From Folioceros fuciformis (taxonomy: Eukaryota), in assembly GCA_049999805.1 (NCBI GenBank), contig JBNGIO010005876.1, forward strand, positions 72,379-92,378: a DNA stretch of 20,000 nt, in the 5' to 3' direction. The notes beneath the pieces were generated by a model. That model did not search any database, was not told where the DNA came from, and saw only the letters and a program-made list of their open reading frames with translations. The translations under genes were made by a program, and so were the position numbers. How positions within the stretch are numbered: position 1 is the stretch's first letter; each line of letters starts with the position of its first letter. This document shows, piece by piece, positions 1,302 through 20,000 of the stretch.

Positions 1302-1759
1302 GACGCCGATGTAGTAGTACCCGATGACGACGAAGGGCTCCAACAGTCCTGCACCGCTCCGGGACGAAACGTGAAACGCCTCCGGCCGCCGCTTTGTACA
1401 GAGCAATCGAGACAATGGAGAATCCCTCTGCTTGTCACAAGCTCTGGCACACACCTAAAAGTCTTTGCCTACGAGCTCATGAATTTCAAGAGCAAATATA
1501 TTATTAAAAAAACAAGCCCACGGGCCCAACTAGGGCCCGCGGGGTATGGAGACACCGCCGCAAATCCAGTAGCCGAAGGGTCTGCAGAGCTCGGGCTTCC
1601 GGAGACCCTTCAGATCGCTGTCAACATCAGTGAAATCCAAGACAGGAGAGATCGTGTTCAGCAAGCACGCATTTCGGCAGTTCCTTGAGCCGTGCTTTAG
1701 AACGCCTTGCGATGGAGTTTGCTTGGACTGTTAGCACGGCGGTCACAGAAGCTCATGGC

Positions 1760-2128
1760 TCAAGAAGGAGAAGCTTGTTGGCTTTCCAATAGGCGAGTGA
1801 TCCAGTCCGCGACCACGTCCCCATGGCAGGCCAGGGGCTTGCAGTAGCAGGCCAGCTTGAGCTCAGGGTTTCCAGGTTGCGCCAGATGCACCAGCTGCAT
1901 CAGGTGCTCGAACTGCGGGTTGGTGCGGCCAGCAAGCCCCTCGCTTACCAGCTGCCCCAGCCAGCTCCTGTACTTGGCCACAACGTCCTGCCTGTCCCCG
2001 TCCACCCCGATCTTGAAAGGGTTGCCCAGCGGAGATCCCGCCAGATTGAACTTGGGGTTCCGCCTCCCGATGTAAACCACGCCTTCGCCTCTCCACCCCT
2101 CCTTGTACCCGTTCACTGCTCGCACCAT
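1760..2128 (-). CDS. DUF4326-domain protein, intronless, 122 aa
   Basis: Motifs VYIGR...SPLGNPF.IG.DGDR..VV.KYR.WL and the C-terminal LACYCKPLACHGDVV match the DUF4326 signature (YIGR / W-or-L-GNPF / LxCxCxPxxCHGD). Clean ATG-to-TGA ORF with GC-rich codons. Confidence 0.85.
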   Translation of the reverse strand: MVRAVNGYKEGWRGEGVVYIGRRNPKFNLAGSPLGNPFKIGVDGDRQDVVAKYRSWLGQLVSEGLAGRTNPQFEHLMQLVHLAQPGNPELKLACYCKPLACHGDVVADWITRLLESQQASPS

Positions 2129-2617
2129 AGCCGCGGCCCGCGCACCACTGCAGCTGGTATGCGTGTGTTGAGAACCTGAGGCAGTGCACGGGAGGGTGAA
2201 AGGGCTGCGAAGTCATGGTCTGCATGTGCATCTCACACCAGCGTAGGAGCTACGGCACATCCAAGCCGACTTACCAAACTGCCCGGAGCCTTCCTGCTCT
2301 CAGTCACAGAGATCTTATCCGAGCCCAGATATTTGCAGACTGTGCCATTTGCCTCAAAAGCAGACACTTCACTGTTGAGTTTGCATTTTGCGCCGGGCAG
2401 GAGGAAGGGTCGCAGGGTCTGGAGGGCCTGGAATCCGTACTGGGCCCTGACAGACTGTAGTGCGGAGATGGAAGGCTGTTGCTGGGCCTGAATGCAGCTG
2501 CCGGTGTTGCTGGGAGCAGGATGCGGGCTAGGGTAGCCGGAGTGCGGTGACTGTGCAGCCGGGCGGCGAAGGAAATACAAGCAGAAGTTCCGCATGCCGG
2601 GGTGCGGAGGGAGAGCA

Positions 2618-4685
2618 ATGGCTCAGGCTCTGGGGCTGAAGCCGTCCGTGATGGTGCCGTCGGGGCACCCGCTGTCGTCGCTCTCCGCCACCAACTGCGC
2701 CAGGCCGCTGCAACAGCGCTGCGCGCACCTGGCGCACGGCCTCAGATTGTGCTCAGCTACGGCCTCNNNNNNNNNNNNNNNNNNNNNNNNNNNNNNNNNN
2801 NNNNNNNNNNNNNNNNNNNNNNNNNNNNNNNNNNNNNNNNNNNNNNNNNNNNNNNNNNNNNNNNNNCTGAGGGAAGTGGAACTGGAGAGTGGTGCTGATT
2901 CCGACGGGTCAGAGGAGAAGCCTGGAGCCTGGAAGTGGGCCATCCGGAAGAAGATTTGGGACTTGCTGGAGGCCGAGAACTTGGCCCAAAGCCCGCGGCC
3001 TGTGCACCATCGGATTCCGAATTTCGTGGGTGCGAATGTGGCAGCTACCAAGGTGCTGCTCCTGTCAATGTCTGTGCTTTTGGGTTTTGGTGGATTTTCT
3101 TCCATTGTCTGGACGGTGCGGTGCTGAATCTTCTGTGCATCCTCAACATTGTGGAACTGTCCTAGGTGGCAAGTCTGCCAGAATTTGTGGCTGCCAAGAC
3201 TGTGAAAGTGAATCCGGATACTCCCCAGAAATTGGTGCGACGCTTGGTCTTGGCTGGTGAGAGCCTTAAGCGTTTTGAGTGAAGAGTATCGGATTTGCCT
3301 CCGCAAATGGCCTGAAGGATCCCGGCTTGAGCATGGGTGCAGAGGGCAAGAAGATGATAACTCCACAGCCTCGGCTTCGGACAGGCTTCTTTTCGTTGTT
3401 GGATCCTGCCGTTCTGTCTTCCGAAGCGATTAGGGAGTGTGTCACCTCAGCAGCGGTAGCCAAGCACGGGAAGCCCCTCACTGTCAAGGCGGACTTGAAG
3501 GTGGATCTGCTTGTTATCGGGTCTGTGGCTGTGGATCCTGCAACTGGTGCCCGTCTCGGGAAAGGAGAGGTAGAGGATGCAGCATGCGTTTCCTGGCTTG
3601 TGATTGTTTAGTGTGCCTTCACGTCAACTCTCCATTCAGCTCCTTTGGGCAATCTGCGATAGGGTTTTGCAGAGTTGGAGTATGGTCTGCTGCGCTACAT
3701 GGGTGCAATCGATGACTCCACTCTAATCGTCACGTCAGGTAGTCTACTTACTCTTCTTCGGTTGTTGGAAGGATGCACCCTCACGAGTCTCTCTCGGTAT
3801 GATCTGCTACTGATTGTGCCCCTGATGAGAGGGATGTGCGTTGTCAGTGCATGATAAGCAGCTGGTGGACAACATACCAGTGGAAAAGCTTCTTGTACAT
3901 GACGTCCCGGTGGACATCATCTGCACTCCTACCCAAGTCATCCGCACCAACACAACTATTCCGAAACCTACAGGTAACTCCATGCCATCTGGAATCAGCT
4001 GTAGAATGACTGCTGTTTCTGGCTTCTGTGAGGGACTGGAGCAAGGGAGCTGAGGACAGGAATGGCCTTCGGGGGGCACACAGGTATCTACTGGGACAAA
4101 CTGTCTCCAGAGAAGCTGAGCCAGATCAAAGTACTCAGGGACTTAAAGAGGCAGATCGAAGCTGAAACAGGGAAAAAGCTACCCACAGGGCCGAGTGAAA
4201 CACTACCTCCAGTGGCCAAAAGGGTTCCTATTGGCAAGGCTCGAGAACTCCCTCTCAAAGAGAAGCTCGTGCTCTGGTATCTGGATCCCAAGGTAACATG
4301 GTTTGATGTGAAGCAGCACGTAGAAAAGGTGGGAGGAGTCGTAGACAGCGTGACCATGTTCGGGGCAAGGACTGGGACACCAAAGCAAGCCGCTCGGGTG
4401 ACTCTGAAAGCAGGAGGGACTGCTCCGGTAGAAAAGCTGGCCGAATCTCTCCGGGCCTCGGTTCTGAAAGGCTCCCATGTCAGGGCCAGAGTTCTCCTAC
4501 CCAAGGACGGTGCTTCAGAATCGGTGGCGGACATCATAGATGAACAGGAGACAACAGTGCTGTGTACAGCCTCAAACACGGCGGGCGGGCCAGCATCCCG
4601 CGACTCCGAGTCTGAGCCTTCTCCAACAGAAGTAGCTGTTATCGCTACCGCCCAACATGTACGAATGCCCCACTGCCGTCCTTGA
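2618..4685 (+). CDS. COG0212: 5-formyltetrahydrofolate cyclo-ligase-like protein COG0212 / MTHFSD homolog, with plastid transit peptide and C-terminal RRM-like domain
   Basis: Exons 2618-3052 (includes N gap 2767-2866), 3166-3256, 3343-3569, 3663-3738, 3848-3973, then 4084-4658 if spliced or 4084-4685 if unspliced. All introns are GT-AG and phase-consistent. Motifs [40 protein letters not shown]...[40 protein letters not shown]. The Ser/Ala/Arg-rich N-terminus resembles a transit peptide. Confidence 0.92.
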
Positions 4686-4760
4686 CTCCCCGGCCAGATT
4701 AGTGAAGCGGGCCCTCGCGACAGGTCGTGGTAAAGTGTTGGTTCTAACGCTCTCATGCAG

Positions 4761-5315
4761 AGTGCACAGACTCGTCGACAGGCTCTCTGTTCTCTCTGCC
4801 TTGGAGCTCTCTCTCTGGCTGCTGATTCCCGCCAAGAAGCCCAGGCCCTCTTGGACAACACCCCTGGCTGCCGAAACTGTGGTGGCTCCGGTGCCGTTCT
4901 CTGTAAGTACTGCGTCCTTCATCCTCTCTGCATGTAACCTTGAAGGTAGTGCCGTCCCTCCAACTACATCGTCTGAACCCGCGATCTCGTGCTTCTGGCC
5001 AGGCGACATGTGTGGAGGGACTGGCAAGTGGAAGGCCCTCAACAGGAAGCGAGCCAAGGACATCTACGAGTTCACCGAATGCCCTAACTGCTACGGTATA
5101 TTCCTTCCTGATTCGAATCTCTGGAACGTGCTCTTGTTGCCGGCCAATCGTAGCCAACACCGTGCACTGATTTCCTCCTCGCAGGACGCGGCAAGCTCGT
5201 CTGCCCGGTCTGCCTCGGCACGGGCGTGTTCAATAACAAGGGGCTGCTTCGCAGACCCGAGGCCAAGGAGCTCCTGGACAAAATGTACCATGGTAGGTTG
5301 CTGCCGAGCAGCTAG
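4761..5315 (+). CDS. PSA2: PHOTOSYSTEM I ASSEMBLY 2 (DnaJ-type zinc-finger thylakoid lumen protein) exons; no independent first exon found
   Basis: Exons 4761-4902, 5003-5095, 5185-5315 give [121 protein letters not shown]. It has a twin-Arg Tat signal with an AxA site and four CxxCxGxG repeats, nearly identical to Arabidopsis PSA2/EDA3 as remembered. Confidence 0.93.
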
Positions 5316-6620
5316 CCGTTGCGTGTGTCCCGTCCTCCGTGCAATCACACCTTTTTTGTGGGGTTCACCCCGTCCGGTAGTAGAGACCATGGAAGCTTGT
5401 GCCTTTGCCAAAACGAGCCGTGGCCAACCCACGACGTCAGACAAGAGCACCAACAGTAACGACACGAAGTGCGTGAAGTGGGCCGCATCACGAAAACCAA
5501 CCACCTGTGTGGGCGGAGTACGGCCACCTCCAGAAACTGTGGTCTGTCACGAGAGCACACTTGCGTTGCGGATAGTGCTGCTGGAACAGAGAACTGTACC
5601 GAAGGGGCGGGGAAGCCGCCAGGAACCTCCGCGACGCTAAGGTTAAAGGAATTTCACCTACTGTACCAGCGGGATTTGAAGGCACGGCTGTGCAACAGAC
5701 ACGCGGAGTGGGGGAGATCCGCGACGCAGCCGGAGCGATTCAGCTCGGGCGCCGCGAGGCTGTATTGAATGTGGTAGGCCAGCTGCTGTGGCAGTGGGCG
5801 TGTGTCTGTGCCAGAGTGTTTCGTTGGTGAACGTGGATAGAATAAGACAGTAGCAGTCGGGCTTAGAAGCCTGATGTTGACACAGTCCTGTGACGCAAGA
5901 ATCCGTGTGCTACCGACCTCGACTGGGAGTGTGAACTTTCGAGGCAACTGGAGTCTTGTGGTCGGCTTGACCCATGTTTGTTGCACCCTTGTCTGATGTC
6001 AGTCAAGGTTCTGTGATGGCTACTCCTGCTTCTTGCCCCTATTAGCCTCTGGGATTATGCCCCAGGGTCCCGAATATCAGTGCCGGCCGGCCTTCTCTTG
6101 TCGCTCGCTGCCCTGACTTTGCGTCGGGTCTGTGACAATTAGTTCGTTTGAGATTTGGCGCCCCGACAGGCGGCGGTTTCGGTTTTGCAACCACTGCTCG
6201 GGCTGGGATTGAAGTCCTATTGGCAGGAACTTGTATTTGCTTTGGGCCTGGTGCTCGATTTTGGCCTTGGGCTGTCCGCTTGCTCCGAGACTCCTTTGTG
6301 TCTCTTCTTTGCTGAGTTGCGGGTCTGCATGTTGCGATTCTCTGCCCTGCAAGTGTTGAGGGTGCTAGCTCTGGTGGAGAAGGAACGTCCGCGGCGTGTC
6401 GGAAGCTGCCAGGTGCCGGGATGAACTTTGCGTGCAGAATTTGAGATTTGGGCGGGTGGATTTGGAGGTCCCGGTGGCAGGTTGGGGAGCTGCAAGCCGT
6501 TTGGTGAAGTTGTTGAAAAGGTGGCGAACAGAGTTTTCAAGATGCATGGTGGAAGACAGCGCTGTGGGAATGCTGCAAAGGGTAGAGGAGAGCGGGACTG
6601 TGGTGTGAGTGCCCACCAGC

Positions 6621-8105
6621 ATGTGCTTCCCCAAGCGTGCAACTCCGTCCAAGCCTGGGTGTGCTAAGGGACCGACAGAAAACACGGCGCGTAAGCAGAT
6701 TATGAAAAATGAACTCAGGCACATGGGTCCAGCAAGCCGAGCGGCACCAGCTGTTCATCAGGCCAGGGCTAAACCGCCCAGATTCCAGGAGCATCGGAGT
6801 TTAAATCCGTCGAGCAGCACGTCGTCGGGTCGGCAGTCGGGCTTCTCCAGGGAGTCTGCCAGCAGCGGGTCTCTGGCGGGAGTGAGACAGCTCGTGTCGG
6901 ATGGGGCTGTGGTGTACAGGCACAAGGAACTCAGCAGGGCCACAGACCATTTCAGCAGTTCCATGAACATCCCAGGCTCCAAGTCGGTGTTCCGCGCTTC
7001 TCTTATGGGGGTGGAGGTGGCAGTGACGCGGAAGAAACATGAAGGACAGGGTATGGACTTTCTGGCAGAGCTCAAGCTTCTTTGCAGTGTGCACCATACC
7101 AACATCGTGAAGCTCTTGGGGGGATGCTTTGTGAAAGGAGACTGTGTGTACCTGGTTCATGAACTGGCAGAAGGTGCTAATCTCAGGCACGCCCTTCGCA
7201 GTCCTCACAATCCGGGCTTCTGCCTTCTGGCATCTTTGGCATCCAGGCTGCAGGTAATCGCCGTCTGGCCTCAGGGTGATGTTTCTTTTCCATTCCTGCA
7301 TGGCTTGTGGACACTTGTTGCATGACAGTGACATGCATTACCTGGTGCGAGCTGCCAGGTTGGTTTGGATGTGGCCAAGGCTCTGGAATACCTTCACGAG
7401 TATGCCTACCCAACCTTCGTCCACAGGTTCGTACAGAGCTCCAACGTTATCATTGACAATGACCTGAGGGCCAAGATTGCAAAGTTCGGTGTCTCCAAGT
7501 TGATCGGAGACACAGTCAGTCAAACACCCACTCCAGATCCCTCCTCCAGATCAAGCGGCGAGCACTCAATATTCAGCGGTGAGATACAGCCGTCAACTGG
7601 TGCTGGAGGATCCGGAAGGAGTAGCCCGTTGGCAATAGCGCGACCCAGAAGCGGCCGGATTATAGGGACTAAGGGTTACATGCCTCCAGAGTACTGCTCC
7701 TCGGGCATTGTGAGCGTCAAGTATGACGTTTTTTCTTTCGGGGTGATTTTGCTGGAGCTCCTATCTGGCCAGGAGCCCCTTGTCTACGTTCCGGACAAAG
7801 ATCAGAACTCCGTCACCGTGAATTCCGTCACCGATGCAATTTCTTACATCATGGAAGACAGCAATGACAGCAGGACGAGGCTGAGGAAGTGGATGGATCC
7901 TCTTCTTCGAGACCAATACTCTCTTGATCATGCGTACCAGGCTGCAGCTCTTGCCAAGTCCTGTGTGGACCCAGACCCAACAATCCGCCCCCACATGCGG
8001 GATGTGGCTGTTAAACTGTCTAAGCTCCTGACAGCTACCACAGTGTGGGAGACTAACTTGGCTAGCGCCAAGAACGCGATGAGTGGCCCAGTCGAGGCAA
8101 GATGA
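6621..8105 (+). CDS. LysM-RLK-related receptor-like cytoplasmic (pseudo)kinase
   Basis: Exons 6621-7253 and 7359-8105 (105-nt GT-AG intron). Kinase subdomains ELKLLCSVHHTNIVKLLG, GLDVAKALEYLHE, GTKGYMPPEY, DVFSFGVILLELLSGQEP, LRKWMDPLL, CVDPDPTIRP. No signal peptide, LysM or transmembrane segment. Confidence 0.88.
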
Positions 8106-9095
8106 AGACAAAGCTTGGGCATTGCTGCTGCTTTAACTGCTGATGCCACCACTGGCAGGTCCTGGTTCTCAACTCAATGCTTGGCCTGGAGGGTTCTCCA
8201 CATGTTTCGCGTGGGCAGTTCTCGGATGAAAGCGTAGAAGGCTGGTCGCTTGACAATGCGGAAGTCACCAGCCAAGACTTGGGTCGTGAATTGTGAGGCA
8301 TACGTGATCCAGGTCTTCGGCAGACGTCACAAAGTCCTGGTCACAAGAGAGAAATCTGTGACCAGTTTGGGTTGCAGAGGTGTGGGTCACATCTAAAGGC
8401 AACCAGGGCAAGGAAATTCTTGTCCACGAGGAATCTCTCGTGCCACCAGGGTAGATGAGACGACTTACGCCTTTCCGAGCGTGCCAGGACAACTTCAGAA
8501 GTTGTTCCGAACACCAGAATTTCTCGATCCAGTCGAAATATTCATGTGAACATCCAAGGCGGCACGTGCGGTCACGTTCTTCTATTTGAGTTGAGGTAGA
8601 TGTTATTCAAGGCCTCCTAGCCCATGCTATGAGATTCATAGTTCACACAATAAGAGGCTTCCAGTTCGTTGTAGGAGACTGTACTACTAAGTTTCAGTTC
8701 ATTCAAGTCTGGTACGATTTACCAGCTTGTCTAACAATCCGGTTTTATAGGTGATAGCTTTCATAACAATTCGATTCTCTACATAATAGGTTTTCCAAGC
8801 ATTCATCTTTCTGCGTGAGAGCTTTTCTAACCATTCAATTAACATCTCCTTTGCTTTAACAGCCCTTCTAACTATTCATCAGAAGTGGCTATACCATTCC
8901 GGCGTTTTCCATGCTAGCCATTTTGGGCTAAACGACATGCATGTGAATGACAACAGCCAGCCTCAGTTGGGCTGAGACGTTACCAGCACAAAGAATAACG
9001 GTGATGACTACCATTTAGCAAGTACCCGGCAGATCTTCTTTTGTGTATCCACTCGAGCTACGTAGATGAATTCTGAAGTTCAATGTGACTTTGAC

Positions 9096-11169
9096 TTATC
9101 CGGTCGCAATGGTCCGTGCCTTTTCTCGAGGGGGCACTTTTAGCCAAGTCTTGAGAGTTTCGTACGCAGCAAATCCGATAGCCACAGAGGGCACCAACTG
9201 CACACAAGAGGACATTCCAAGGGTCAGTGCAGTAACAGCCAAGGAGAATGAAAGCAGATGGAGAGAGCCTCTTGAAACGCAGTAATATGCTAGCAGCCAT
9301 CTCTCGTTTGACCCGAGACCTTGATGTAGTTAATGCTGAGCCCTGCGTACATCTGCCTCCAGCCGTGAGTGCGGAAAATTGTGACTAGACCATGCCATGT
9401 TCCCTTGTAATGGACAGGGACCAATCCGGATCCTCTGTAAACGCCTTGTACCTGATCGCAGCAACAACTGTTAATTCTTGCAACAAGATGTCAAGGGGAG
9501 AGAGCAGAAACAGAACAAACATGCCTTCTGTAGTCTGTGATGAAATCTACCTGCATTTGTCGCCTGATTACATCAAGAGGATAGGTGCACGTTTGGCCCA
9601 CTAATCCAGCCACTCCTCCACAACCAAGTTTCCAGATTATAGAAGGCTCATCATCGCCTGGTATCTGCTTCTTCAATGATTCATACACAAAAAACTTGAG
9701 ACCAGCATATGGGAAGATTCCCCACAAAGTCGGTCCTGCAAACACAAGATGACAAATAATATGGTATTGCCCGAAAATGGACATGGCTGGAAAGCATGGT
9801 ACATCAATACCAGAAGTCAACCTAAAGAAGGGTCAATCTTAGCTAGCACATTGATACACATACACTTCGATGCCAATTTCAAAACACTTGTGATGTTGCA
9901 ACCGTTTAAGGTCCTCTTGAAGGCACATACCAACCCCTCGGTACAATCCACGGATACCGCTCTCTTTGTAAACCCTGGAGAAGACATCTCCAACACCCTT
10001 ATACACAACACCTCTAAAAGAACTATCCCCTGCTGCAGTGGAACCCGTCTGCCGAGAAACAAACTTGTCAGTGGCCCGCAAAACAATATCTACACATCTG
10101 AGCACCAGCAAAGCACAAAAGCCTTCCCTTGTACTTACATTGCATGCCAATCGAGTACGTGCGAGATCTAACGGGTACGTGCTGATGACCGCTGTTCCCC
10201 CGGCTAATGAACCAGCAATGAGGTCAACCACGGGCCCTGAACCTGCTGGAGGATAGTATTCTATAATCCATCGCCGATATTGCTCATAACTCATAAAGTG
10301 CAGAGCAGCGTATGGAACGACCCTCATGACGTTTGCACCATTCCCTCTGTTCCAAAAACCAGCCTTCTATCTCAGGCCACACAATAATAGGAAAGCAATA
10401 CCGGTAGCCAACAATTTGACAATTGAAACCCGCGCCACACTCATATTTACAGACCGGGTGCTAATTCAAGGTGGAAGACCCACCGGTAGAACCCACGAAT
10501 GCCTTCACTTGTCCATATAGACGTCAAGGACCGCCAGACTCCAAGTGTCTGAAAGTTGCCGTACCTAGTCTGCAGTTCACCAGACTCTGGCTAAGTGCTC
10601 CTCACAAAAAAAAGAACAGCAATACCATGACATGACCTTGAGTTCACGCTTCAAACTCTGCATCCGCCGACCAAGACCACTGCCAAACCACGTACAAGTG
10701 ATTCCTGTCGGCAAGCCAACCGTGAGAATGTGCGACATACAGTACCAGAGTACCAAGCTTGATGGACCTTCCAGCTTAAGATATAGCGTCAATTACCTTC
10801 GAAACCCTAAAAGAGCTACGAAAATACTGTCTCTTCCACAACAATTCACAATGACCTCAACAGCAGGTTGAAGTGAAACAATTTCCGACACTGGACCAAC
10901 GTCCCCAAGCATTTCCAGTGACAGGCAGTGCTCTCGTCTGAAGCACTAGCACAGGAAAGCAAAGCGCTAACCTGGTAAAGTATCTTAACACGCTCAAGAG
11001 GAGCCACGGCAGACTTAGCAAATCCGCCAGCCACACCTCCAGCTATTAGCTCCTTCGCATAGGTCGGCATCGAATCCCTCCAAGAATCCAGGCTCTCGTC
11101 CGTTTCAGCCATTGCCACAGTCCTGCTGTAATCCGGATTAGAAACCAAACTCCGGGCTCCGGGGTCCAT
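9096..11169 (-). CDS. COAC: Mitochondrial carrier family protein, CoA transporter CoAc1/CoAc2 (SLC25A16/Leu5-like)
   Basis: Seven exons 11169-10972, 10569-10484, 10346-10139, 10048-9931, 9735-9551, 9451-9320, 9197-9096, all GT-AG and in phase. Three carrier signatures ([30 protein letters not shown]), [27 protein letters not shown], and C-terminus WLKVPPREK. Alternative start at 11112 (MAETD). Confidence 0.92.
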
Positions 11170-11912
11170 CCTTCCGGAGTGACCGAAATCCACGGTATTA
11201 GAGTCTTTCGATCACCACAGAATTTTCCAGCGGTGATTCTGAGTTGGACAATGAGAAGCTTCTCCCCACACGCGAATTTCGCCAATCCTGCCCCACGACT
11301 AAAACATCGAGGCACCAGAAGGATAACATCCACGATTCCTCCGATTCTGCCGACGAAGAGTTGCAAACCTAGAAGACAACATCAACCTCCAAGCAACAAC
11401 CCCATCCTGGACATGCCAGACTCCACCACCGTGTCTGATCCAGCTTCTTCACCCTCTCACTGCCCAATCCGTAGCCTATAGACAATACCGTGCCGAATCT
11501 CCAGGGCATCTTCCTATCACTTGCGGCACTCAGAATGACGAGACAGCGGTTGCCTGGGATCCTGCTCACCGCAAGATCTTCAGAGCACACCCCATGCCTC
11601 CATCTATTGCCGGCGAACATGGGCAGAAGTATGGCAGATTTTCCAAGCAGTTGGGGATCTGACACCGAGTCTGAGGAAGGTAAGTGGCAACCCGGGCTTC
11701 CACCTGACGAAGAAAAAATGCAGCACCGCGCACAGCATTCGAACACGCAACATACACAAGGCATCACGGCCGCACTAGCCGCGGCAACTGGAATTTCAGG
11801 CCAGTTTCTGGATGGCCCACCAGAGCGTGGTGCACACCGGCCCGGCCTGAACGGGTCGGGTAACGGGCTGACGGGATCAGAAATTACGTGGATGGCCACA
11901 CATAAGGCTTTC

Positions 11913-18143: not shown

Positions 18144-18199
18144 CTAAGCTAGGAGTTTAGCTCTCCCTTCTCTTGGCCTCCTCCCACAGCTCCTTCACA

Positions 18200-18812
18200 G
18201 CACCTTTCATGTGCTTTCACAACCCAAGCAACACATGCTCTCAAGGCAAAAAAGCCCAAGCACCCAGTGCTCTCAAGGCATAGCCCAAGCAACACATGCT
18301 TTCACAGCCCAAGCAACACATGCTTTCACAGCCCAAGCAACACATGCTCTCAAGGCAAAAAAGCCCAAGCACCCAGTGCTCTCAAGGCATAGCCCAAGCA
18401 ACACATGCTCTCACAGCCCAAGCAACACATGCTCTCACAGCCCAAGCAACACATGCTTCAAGGCAAAACAACCCAAGCACCCAGTGCTCTCAAGGCATAG
18501 CCCAAGCAACACATGCTCTCAAGGCAAAGCCCAAGCAGCACCTTTCATGTGCTCTCATAGCCCAAGCAACACATACTCTCAAGGCAAAGCCCAAGCAGCA
18601 CCTTTCATGTGCTCTCACAGCCCAAGCAACACATGCTCTCAAGGCAAAAAAGCCCAAGCACCCAGTGCTCTCAAGGCATAGCCCAAGCAACACATGCTCT
18701 CAAGGCAAAGCCCAAGCACCCAGTGCTCTCAAGGCTTTGAGGAGATACTCATCTCAACTCCATTGTACTCTCAAGGCTTTGAGGAGATACTCATTTCAAC
18801 TCCATTGTACTG
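18200..18812. repeat. Compound satellite built on GCCCAAGCA / TGCTCTC(A) modules (24-bp core), ending in a 42-bp duplication
   Basis: ACAGCCCAAGCAACACATGCTYTC and AAGGCAAAAAAGCCCAAGCACCCAGTGCTCTC variants are interleaved. CTCTCAAGGCTTTGAGGAGATACTCAT.TCAACTCCATTGTA occurs twice. Confidence 0.95.
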
Positions 18813-19154
18813 AACTTCCCTTAGCCCTTGGCTAGGTCCCCTTTTATACACAAGCTCAAGTCACTAACTTAGCAACTACTTACTTAAGCACTTACTTAAG
18901 CCTTAAGCTATTATTCACTACCACACACTTTTTCCTAGGGCTGCATGCTTCTCATGCTCTTAGTAACCTGCTCTGCTAAACATGCCTCTACATGGAGCTT
19001 ACTTGCTTGGCACTCAAACCAACGTTGTTACTGTTTGGGTACTTCCTATCTACTCTCTACTAAATAGCGGGTTTTTCAGCGCTTAAACCTCACCCAAAGT
19101 TTATTGCCTTCTCGAAGTTTATTACCTTCTTTTGGAGAGGCGTGCAGCATTCTC

Positions 19155-19410: not shown

Positions 19411-19544
19411 TCCTGCATTGTGCGGGCTTTTGCATTTGCGGGCTAGAGAGTTTGAACGGGCTTGGTCTCTTTAGATCTTTGGTCGATTGTGCAAGCAAAG
19501 GCTCAAGGGTATTCTGTAGTAGGTCTTCCTCTTAAGTAACCCCG

Positions 19545-20000
19545 TCTCAAGTTCAAGGGTATCCAGCAACGATCTCAAACACTCAAACGCAACGATCTCA
19601 NNNNNNNNNNNNNNNNNNNNNNNNNNNNNNNNNNNNNNNNNNNNNNNNNNNNNNNNNNNNNNNNNNNNNNNNNNNNNNNNNNNNNNNNNNNNNNNNNNNN
19701 CGCAACGATCTCAAACACTCAAACGCAACGATCTCAAACACTCAAACACAACGATCTCAAACACTCAAACGCAACGATCTCAAACACTCAAACGCAACGA
19801 TCACAAACACAAGGGTATTCAACAACTCCAATCTCAAGTTCAAGGGTCTTTAGTAACCCAGATCTCAAGTTCAAGTTCAAGGGTATCCAGCAACGATCTC
19901 AAACACTCAAATGCAACGATCTCAAACACTCAAACGCAACGATCTCAAACACAAGGGTATTCAACAACTCCAATCTCAAGTTCAAGGGTCTTTAGTAACC
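19545..20000. repeat. 23-bp tandem repeat AACGATCTCAAACACTCAAACGC with higher-order blocks
   Basis: Repeated units flank the 19601-19700 gap. The block CAAGGGTATTCAACAACTCCAATCTCAAGTTCAAGGGTCTTTAGTAACC occurs twice. Confidence 0.95.

Follow-up and report, generated by a model that had tools for sequence, protein, structure and literature searches.

In-frame splicing joins COG0212-RRM and PSA2 coding sequences in Folioceros fuciformis: a candidate chloroplast polyprotein

Introduction

In the textbook view of chloroplast targeting each protein has its one presequence, and natural precursors holding two unrelated proteins destined for two sub-compartments are, to our knowledge, very rare in the green lineage. 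The thylakoid polyprotein PsbY of Arabidopsis is said to be one precursor with several products, in work attributed to Mant and Robinson in 1998 and Thompson et al. in 1999. A single nuclear-encoded plastid precursor with an internal signal peptide is reported to give more than one mature product, and it is to this that we liken the precursor proposed here for Folioceros fuciformis. PsbY yields two similar small membrane proteins, whereas here one product would be a stromal enzyme and the other an unrelated protein soluble in the lumen, the latter exported by a twin-arginine signal.

A second precedent is provided by Tat substrates with internal signals. [quoted passage not shown] The FecR signal is bacterial and is not cleaved, whereas in F. 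fuciformis the A-x-A motif points to cleavage, with the thylakoid as the presumed membrane. These two known kinds, a polyprotein as in PsbY and an internally placed Tat signal, serve as precedents for reading the F. fuciformis locus as a fused precursor.

The two proteins concerned are encoded by separate genes in Arabidopsis, as the first-pass annotation of this DNA had stated, COG0212 by At1g76730 and PSA2 by At2g34860 (excerpts of PMC4120688 and PMC11449065). Plant COG0212 has been linked to thiamin metabolism, but even for the Arabidopsis protein the activity is given as unknown (PMC4120688). PSA2, for its part, has been described as a soluble photosystem I assembly factor of the thylakoid lumen, with a predicted lumenal cleavage between A93 and L94 in the Arabidopsis protein (excerpts of PMC11449065). 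In animals, MTHFSD (PDB 2E5J) has a cycloligase-like domain followed by an RRM, the same domain order as in F. fuciformis (excerpts of PMC2504292).

Results and Discussion

Structure of the locus

The locus lies on the + strand of a 20,000-nucleotide window of F. fuciformis DNA (assembly GCA_049999805.1, contig JBNGIO010005876.1, positions 72,379 to 92,378), and has the form of a plant-type nuclear gene of nine exons occupying 2618-5315 of the window (Table 1). The spliced reading frame is 1899 nt long, corresponding to 632 codons. This includes 103 letters across an assembly gap in exon 1, presumed free of stop codons and judged to be in frame by length, since a contig from public sequencing run X1 places 149 + 103 = 252 nt between ATG 2618 and 2867. 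A second in-frame ATG is found at 2594. Among the 49 residues translated ahead of the gap none is acidic and Ser, Ala and Leu are abundant, so that in composition the N-terminus from M2618 is transit-peptide-like. Downstream of the gene, AATAAA, ATTAAA and TGTAA are absent from 5316-6700 in a motif scan, although such poly(A) motifs are uninformative for plants.

Table 1. Features of the COG0212-RRM/PSA2 locus of F. fuciformis, in positions of the window
Feature	Position	Strand	Evidence
First part of exon 1, opening with ATG 2618	2618..2766	+	covered by X1 contig
Assembly gap within exon 1, 100 N	2767..2866	.	103 letters in X1 contig instead
Exon 1, second part; 5-FCL-like (PF01812) core begins	2867..3052	+	PF01812 E 0.005, profile positions 1-40; joint 3052^3166
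Exon 2, COG0212 core	3166..3256	+	X1 joints, homologue alignment
Exon 3, COG0212 core	3343..3569	+	PF01812 33.9 bits vs cut-off 27; X1 joints
Exon 4, COG0212 core	3663..3738	+	X1 joints, homologue alignment
Exon 5, PF01812 domain ends	3848..3973	+	profile positions 164-186; X1 joints
Exon 6 residues 1-46, conserved C-terminal helix of COG0212	4084..4223	+	72-80% identity to angiosperm proteins, which end here
Exon 6 residues 60-138, predicted RRM fold	4263..4499	+	predicted structure pLDDT 72-91; PDB structure matches; kept in P0177 and Sphagnum
Exon 6 residues 139-191, predicted disordered acidic Ser/Thr-rich linker ending ...ATAQH, no stop codon	4500..4658	+	pLDDT ~35
Intron, 102 nt, GT..AG, phase 0	4659..4760	+	X1 joint 4658^4761
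Exon 7, twin-arginine motif, hydrophobic core, AQA, first CxxCxGxG	4761..4902	+	translation, alignment, X1 joints
Exon 8, second and third CxxCxGxG of PSA2	5003..5095	+	translation, X1 joints
Exon 9, with the last of the four CxxCxGxG and the C-terminus conserved in PSA2; TAG stop codon 5313-5315	5185..5315	+	81-93% identity among 120 listed matches; X1 joints

Judged by its sequence, the upstream part is a COG0212-type paralogue of 5-FCL, with PF01812 collinear across the core. The spliced core is 69-73% identical over ~265-281 aa to angiosperm COG0212 (the 25 best of 72 matches), and many of the matches to exon 6 carry the name COG0212. This bears out the identity assigned in the first-pass annotation, and the core is followed by what is predicted to be a true RRM fold, as the annotation had it. 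When PF01812 was aligned to separate exon pieces, exon 3 scored above the cut-off and exons 1 and 5 below it, as expected for fragments. The core of plant COG0212 (At1g76730) is collinear with that of F. fuciformis, but the frame of the latter continues into PSA2. Arabidopsis-type COG0212 ends 3 residues beyond the helix encoded at the start of exon 6, so that the angiosperm proteins stop ~145 aa before exon 6 of F. fuciformis does.

The downstream part is identified as PSA2 by homology, starting at the twin-arginine motif and continuing through to the C-terminus. It comprises 121 aa, with CxxCxGxG motifs at its residues 37, 48, 74 and 85, and between the RR motif and the C-terminus it is 65-75% identical over ~120 aa to PSA2 proteins (the 25 best of 125 matches). 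Many of the 120 listed matches to exon 9, out of 372, are named PSA2 or EDA3. Standalone PSA2/EDA3 (Arabidopsis At2g34860; Chlamydomonas ZNJ1) similarly has four CxxCxGxG motifs, and an A-x-A before the mature part. The F. fuciformis sequence departs from these in that its first PSA2 coding exon follows, by in-frame splicing, the final exon of a different gene. From orthology we infer for this part a site in the lumen and a role in photosystem I assembly. Both the COG0212 and the PSA2 parts look intact and appear to be under selection.

The junction between exons 6 and 7

Exon 6 (4084-4658) ends with the codon CAT at 4656-4658, directly followed by the GT at 4659-4660. The intron contains CTAAC at 4744-4748 and terminates in CAG at 4758-4760, and exon 7 keeps the codon phase, beginning SAQTRRQAL..., so the junction is phase 0 on both sides. 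Matching phase alone would arise by chance in about 1 case in 3. There is no stop codon in the COG0212 frame before the junction, and the sole one available lies inside the intron that is removed. The donor at 4659, the 102-nt phase-0/phase-0 intron, CTAAC at 4744, ATG 4755, TGA 4683 and M4356 are all present as annotated earlier, and the other introns of the gene (113, 86, 93, 109, 110, 100 and 89 nt) agree with the 86-113 nt range to which the 102-nt intron had been likened.

One 7531-nt contig of run X1 matches the window with 0 mismatches. All eight predicted introns are removed from it, each GT..AG, including the 102 nt skipped at joint 4658^4761, where there are 142 letters on the shorter side. 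A further joint, 7250^7356, belongs to the gene that follows. The identification of X1 as RNA is a recorded guess, and the ten GT..AG joints in X1 argue for cDNA. Runs X2 and X3, from other organisms in the same study, contain next to no sequence words of the window. We conclude that the splice 4658^4761 is not a chance feature, and that an in-frame COG0212-RRM/PSA2 fusion exists at the RNA level, as proposed from the DNA alone.

The RNA support comes from one run as contigs, which are without local depth, 5' ends or rare isoforms. The X1 contig passes through a DUF4326 gene upstream (minus strand) and a kinase gene downstream, so overlapping transcripts have been merged, and exons 1 to 9 as seen in it may come from more than one molecule. 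The junction was to have been sought on transcripts that also contain upstream COG0212 exons; all eight joints are indeed found in one contig, but it is one that merges neighbouring genes.

Retention of the 102-nt intron would generate a standalone COG0212-RRM protein, with the fused form being a minor read-through ('conjoined') transcript or serving as a source of PSA2 only. The retained intron would end the frame at TGA 4683-4685, 8 codons in. The nearest homologue, P0177, is 48% identical in exon 6, and its gene lies on a contig of 18.8 kb assembled from a public sequencing run. This protein ends 5 residues past the aligned exon end, and its final Val could be a GTN donor read through. Contigs drop rare variants, so the failure to find a contig or joint in X1 corresponding to intron retention or exon skipping is not evidence of absence. 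Nevertheless 4659-4760 is covered by no X1 contig, and the sole contig aligning within 1500-8200 is the spliced, fused one, making this the only assembled path; moreover translation of PSA2 would still have to begin at an ATG upstream of 4658. We regard alternative splicing of this kind as very improbable.

Targeting signals of the PSA2 part

The RR codons occupy 4773-4778 and are placed behind ~510 residues. They are followed by a hydrophobic core of 15 residues with a mean Kyte-Doolittle hydropathy of 1.7, and by AQA (A-x-A) at 4839-4847. The standalone PSA2 homologues examined have 65-150 residues ahead of the RR motif, whereas alignment with the F. fuciformis sequence begins at exon 7 residues 1-4. 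Tested for a presequence of its own, the PSA2 part thus has the lumen signal (RR, hydrophobic core and AQA) and lacks a start codon and transit peptide. This agrees with the earlier claim that PSA2 is here without its own transit peptide.

A start codon would be available if transcription of PSA2 began within the 102-nt 'intron'. ATG 4755 is in frame, two codons ahead of exon 7, and translation from it would give a protein with the twin-arginine signal only. Assemblers of this kind typically clip 5' ends of less than about 100 nt as short tips, and a 5' end lying <~100 nt from 4761 would in consequence be invisible in the contig. Yet such a product would look to the cytosol like a secretory signal peptide and not a plastid precursor, every PSA2 homologue examined has a long presequence, and the region is spliced out in the sole RNA form seen. 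A start at ATG 4755 is therefore hardly credible.

The RRM and linker of exon 6

The part of exon 6 beyond the COG0212 helix is predicted to fold in the order beta-alpha-beta-beta-alpha-beta, with strands at residues 60-66, 86-93, 101-107 and 133-137 and helices at 72-82 and 115-124. A single-sequence AlphaFold model of exon 6 was of low confidence (pLDDT 49) and is superseded by the model at pLDDT 72-91. In a Foldseek search of the PDB all 46 listed matches (ranks 1-49 with gaps) contain an RRM, with target TM-scores up to 0.77. Pfam RRM_1 gave 13.3 bits (E 0.077), below its gathering cut-off of 20.7, and a sequence search of the PDB with profile A2 found no significant match. From the predicted structure we assign the domain as a true RRM fold, with RNA binding putative.

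The RRM region is conserved in P0177 and in Sphagnum, and the end of the exon 6 tail aligns with the tail of P0177. MTHFSD is not known to be a plastid protein. The RRM plus tail query did not match animal MTHFSD at E <= 0.001, so that common descent of the RRM with that of MTHFSD would be conjecture.

The linker of ~50 aa is predicted to be disordered and would thus be open to a protease. The first-pass annotation had seen in it a stromal processing site and the acidic spacer of PSA2 presequences. The likeness in composition holds, but the alignment that might have made it homology was rejected: with composition correction off it extends into the linker, and does so through low-complexity Ser, Glu and Pro only.

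Exon 6 contains a single in-frame Met, M4356. Two overlapping transcription units would be created if a shorter mRNA began inside exon 6 and PSA2 were translated from this codon, the second half of the RRM and the linker (101 aa) acting as transit peptide and spacer; the long mRNA would then serve COG0212 or be a by-product. The prior ATGs at 4298 and 4306 open frames of just 2 and 1 codons. The product would be 222 aa, which lies within the size of bryophyte PSA2 (222-234 aa) and counts against the fused precursor, and among its first 60 residues 10 are basic and 5 acidic, with Ala, Ser, Thr and Gly abundant. P0177 retains the Met, which is Leu in Sphagnum, and an internal start would leave no trace in contigs. 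On the other hand M4356 lies within strand beta-2 of a conserved and confidently folded RRM, so the sequence is explained without a targeting role, and since COG0212 would still be without a stop codon the long mRNA would still yield the fusion protein. We consider that an internal start at M4356 is unlikely.

Search for fused forms in other organisms

No fused form was found among the listed matches from other organisms, an observation that counts against the fused precursor. Among longer proteins matching exon 6, 0 of 56 are fused, all 56 having PF01812 only (338-456 aa), and none of the 120 listed of 372 matching exon 9 contains PF01812 (96-378 aa). The RRM plus tail query was run against 1.84 billion representatives and gave six matches, none fused: two true homologues, three ordinary multi-RRM proteins and a lectin/LRR protein. 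The longer proteins found with profile A2 (0/2 fused) are both from Sphagnum. At 24 metagenome COG0212 loci there was no PSA2 match (best E 0.59), and none of the 24 shares the neighbouring genes of the F. fuciformis window. In a literature search of the main text of papers, none joined 'photosystem I assembly 2' with '5-formyltetrahydrofolate'.

Among the closest known proteins are two from Sphagnum named 'methenyltetrahydrofolate synthase domain-containing protein' (P0202 and P0203), which have the RRM extension in the same exon as here. Unlike the F. fuciformis gene, Sphagnum COG0212-RRM has a stop 18 aa past the RRM in both genomic and spliced DNA, with no PSA2 nearby.

A proposed route from one precursor to two products

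A polyprotein is the simplest reading of the sole RNA form seen, with its processing putative, and on balance we favour a genuine fusion whose parts come apart once it has been imported. From its N-terminus onward the 632-aa precursor would have a segment resembling a transit peptide, the 5-formyltetrahydrofolate-cycloligase-like core of COG0212, the RRM, the linker, the twin-arginine signal and the PSA2 zinc finger. It would be imported by means of its N-terminal transit peptide, and the internal twin-arginine signal would insert as a loop into the Tat machinery of the thylakoid. Insertion might follow a stromal cut in the linker, or might be direct, with the folded COG0212-RRM left on the stromal side. 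The PSA2 domain would cross to the lumen, where the thylakoid processing peptidase would free it after AQA, and the two products of one precursor would reach different compartments.

If the precursor were made and never cut, the twin-arginine segment would become a signal anchor, giving a single-span thylakoid protein whose COG0212-RRM part faces the stroma and whose PSA2 zinc finger faces the lumen. Uncleaved anchoring signals (Rieske) and internal ones (FecR) are known (excerpts of PMC13673990), and the length and hydropathy of the core would suit such a role. This is at odds with the presence of AQA where the homologues examined have their predicted lumenal cleavage site, and with the description of PSA2 as a soluble lumenal factor (excerpts of PMC11449065), and we think an uncut fusion improbable.

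A stronger form of the proposal that the precursor is separated after import is that PSA2 is made only as the C-terminus of the 632-aa protein, behind a stromal enzyme and RRM of ~510 residues, with Tat taking an internal cleavable signal. We regard this as possible and somewhat doubtful; we know of no internal cleavable Tat signal described in chloroplasts.

Were the fusion the real source of PSA2, it would provide a natural test of whether an internal signal preceded by a folded domain can serve Tat, and of the protease by which precursors of this type are separated. A photosystem I assembly factor would also be expressed 1:1 with an uncharacterised, thiamin-linked enzyme. In the stronger form above, unrelated proteins for two plastid compartments would be joined in one natural polyprotein, and the chloroplast would have its first natural 'class V-like' Tat substrate. 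Should PSA2 instead start at M4356, half of a folded domain would have taken on the role of transit peptide. Both outcomes would be informative about the gain and loss of targeting sequences. The locus is likely to be split or mis-modelled by gene callers.

RNA evidence for the fusion

The fused gene occupies 2618-5315 on the forward strand and can be read as nine exons, separated by introns of 86-113 nt that are GT..AG in every case. The full frame is 1899 nt (632 codons plus stop), counting 103 gap letters by length. Eight codons upstream of ATG 2618 there is another in-frame ATG (2594-2596), and either could be the start.

Exons of the fused gene and the flanking genes reached by the X1 contig
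Feature	Coordinates	Strand	Remark
Exon 1	2618-3052	+	broken by 100-N gap 2767-2866
Exon 2	3166-3256	+	
Exon 3	3343-3569	+	
Exon 4	3663-3738	+	
Exon 5	3848-3973	+	
Exon 6	4084-4658	+	
Exon 7	4761-4902	+	
Exon 8	5003-5095	+	
Exon 9	5185-5315	+	
DUF4326 gene	1760-2212	minus	crossed by X1 contig
Protein kinase gene	6609-8105		intron 7251-7355; entered by X1 contig

The first-pass annotation proposed that COG0212 is joined to PSA2 across the intron following exon 6, and its elements are found in the sequence. The donor reads CAT|GT at 4658|4659, and the 102-nt intron carries CTAAC at 4744-4748 and ends with CAG at 4760. Exon 7 opens SAQTRRQAL... in the same phase as exon 6. Within the intron lie the ATG at 4755 and a TGA at 4683-4685 that would stop translation were the intron retained.

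Within the public sequencing run X1, which is kept as contigs, 69% of sampled words of 2867-6000 are present, and comparison with 1500-8200 gives a single contig of 7531 nt with zero differing letters. Joints in this contig match all eight predicted introns and are GT..AG in every case after the stated cut offsets. The predicted junction 4658^4761 is among them, with the joint running 'from 4658 to 4761, skips 102'. A further joint, 7250^7356, lies in the next gene downstream. The RNA label on the record of X1 is a guess, but with ten precise intron removals in the contig a cDNA origin is the only reasonable reading. The assembly gap in the first coding exon is spanned by 103 letters in the contig and is thus essentially closed by RNA, with the frame preserved by length alone; 149 + 103 = 252, which places ATG 2618 in frame with 2867 as judged by length.

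The contig is unbroken over 1606-2766 and 5184-7250, i.e. across both 'intergenic' regions, and neighbouring transcripts in this compact locus overlap or read through. Because the contig merges them, it does not prove a single molecule running from exon 1 to exon 9. Its loose end at 1606 suggests that the upstream gene has a further splice. Contigs carry neither local depth nor 5' ends, and short tips can drop out. No alternative path with a retained intron or another 5' exon was seen in the X1 assembly, where rare isoforms may be lost. The existence of the 4658^4761 splice is nevertheless established, as is the joining of the first coding exon of PSA2 to the 3' end of exon 6. This shows that the in-frame fusion is real at the RNA level, beyond chance.

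The two halves of the fused gene

By sequence similarity, exons 1-5, together with exon 6 up to residue 46, are assigned to a paralogue of 5-formyltetrahydrofolate cycloligase of the COG0212 type. Individual exon pieces match PF01812, and the spliced core is collinear with the best 25 angiosperm matches of a longer list, many named COG0212, with 69-73% identity. The angiosperm proteins (338-456 aa, PF01812 the only domain in 56 of 56) end three residues past the point matching exon-6 residue 46, and the exon-6 frame runs on for another 145 residues. Modelled with a small alignment (A1), residues 60-138 form a beta-alpha-beta-beta-alpha-beta fold with pLDDT 72-91. The sequence score for Pfam RRM_1 is under the cut-off, and in a Foldseek search of the PDB all 46 listed matches (ranks 1-49 with gaps) contain an RRM. 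Disorder is predicted for residues 139-191.

An all-against-all HMMER search gave two true homologues of the RRM extension, which is therefore not peculiar to Folioceros fuciformis. P0177, a 233-aa ORF fragment, comes from a public sequencing run, where it lies on an assembled contig of 18.8 kb. P0180 belongs to a Sphagnum group whose full-length forms, P0202 and P0203 (562 and 566 aa), have a long N-terminus, PF01812, the RRM and then, 18 residues on, a stop, which is TGA in one genomic and one spliced metagenome contig. In Sphagnum (loci L001-L006; P0202, P0203) the extension shares an exon with the conserved C-terminal helix; angiosperm COG0212 has no RRM. Animal MTHFSD is described as having the same domain order (PMC2504292), and gave no sequence match in the HMMER search with the RRM region. 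At least some non-seed plants thus have an MTHFSD-like architecture, which angiosperms have probably lost.

Exons 7-9 are identified from their sequence as PSA2. This part contains four CxxCxGxG motifs, and the 120 matches listed for exon 9, out of 372, have 81-93% identity to it; many are named PSA2/EDA3. Over its 121 aa the PSA2 part has 65-75% identity to homologues, the alignments starting at residues 1-4, just ahead of the twin-arginine motif. The 16 PSA2 homologues compared have a presequence of 65-150 residues upstream of that motif, whereas the PSA2 part of the fused gene has none of its own. Its lumen signal is intact, with the RR motif, a hydrophobic core of 15 residues, and AQA at the position of the A-x-A site of the homologues. 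Arabidopsis PSA2 is described as a soluble lumenal photosystem I assembly factor of 10 kDa when mature, with predicted cleavage at A93-L94 (PMC11449065). Both halves are well conserved, so that neither resembles a decaying remnant. A faint similarity between 'GAWKW.IRK..WD' near the COG0212 N-terminus (2899-3000) and the PSA2 stretch 5010-5060 gave noise hits (E about 0.6-3) and was judged to be chance.

Translation and proposed targeting

Exon 6 has zero stop codons in the COG0212-RRM frame, the sole usable stop lying within the intron that is removed from the RNA. With no stop before the splice, translation from the 5' start of the observed mRNA must enter PSA2. By default this mRNA therefore yields the fusion polypeptide, and PSA2 can be made from the spliced form only together with 101 or more residues from the end of exon 6. 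A shorter mRNA starting inside exon 6 may also, or mainly, supply PSA2 by initiation at M4356, correctly located by the first-pass annotation and the sole in-frame Met of the exon. Its product, at 222 aa, would match bryophyte PSA2 in size, upstream frames within exon 6 are of 1-2 codons only, and the Met is common to P0177. However, M4356 lies in beta-2 of the conserved fold, which accounts for the sequence without a targeting role.

For the fusion polypeptide, we infer the following fate at the protein level. It would be imported via its N-terminal transit-peptide-like segment, which has zero acidic residues among the first 49. The internal twin-arginine signal would then insert as a loop, the small zinc-finger domain would be translocated, and cleavage would follow AQA in the lumen. 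The disordered linker may first be cut in the stroma, but this step is not needed. The linker had been interpreted as a 'stromal processing site plus acidic spacer'; its composition and spacing fit the homologues, but the alignments are low-complexity and were not counted as homology. PsbY of Arabidopsis is reportedly a polyprotein of the thylakoid that carries dual signal peptides. In bacteria, 'class V' Tat substrates such as FecR are described, in which the signal is internal and follows a folded domain on the cis side (PMC13673990). The fused gene would be a variation on plastid polyproteins, internal Tat signals and gene fusions, all of them known.

Occurrence of the fusion

In other organisms, no fused form was found among the 56 exon-6 matches, the 6 RRM-region matches, the two Sphagnum proteins matched by a profile and the 120 listed of 372 PSA2 matches. 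The best exon-9 identity is 93%, and thus the organism's own lineage seems to be absent from protein collections. None of 24 metagenome COG0212 loci is adjoined by PSA2, the Sphagnum loci giving up to 9 kb downstream. A full-text literature search found both gene names together in no paper. P0177 has a tail that can be aligned to the last part of exon 6 and that ends five residues later in Val. An ORF caller reading through a donor would leave such a pattern, and the fusion may therefore be conserved in that relative.

Elsewhere in the window, exons of the mitochondrial carrier family (PF00153) lie on the minus strand at 9491-11211. At 18148-18835 and 19523-19999, short peptide-like units repeated in tandem (…QATHA…, …SNTQTQRSQT…) make up long open frames in DNA that is AT-skewed, lower in GC and interrupted by N gaps; they are probably satellite or minisatellite DNA, not genes.
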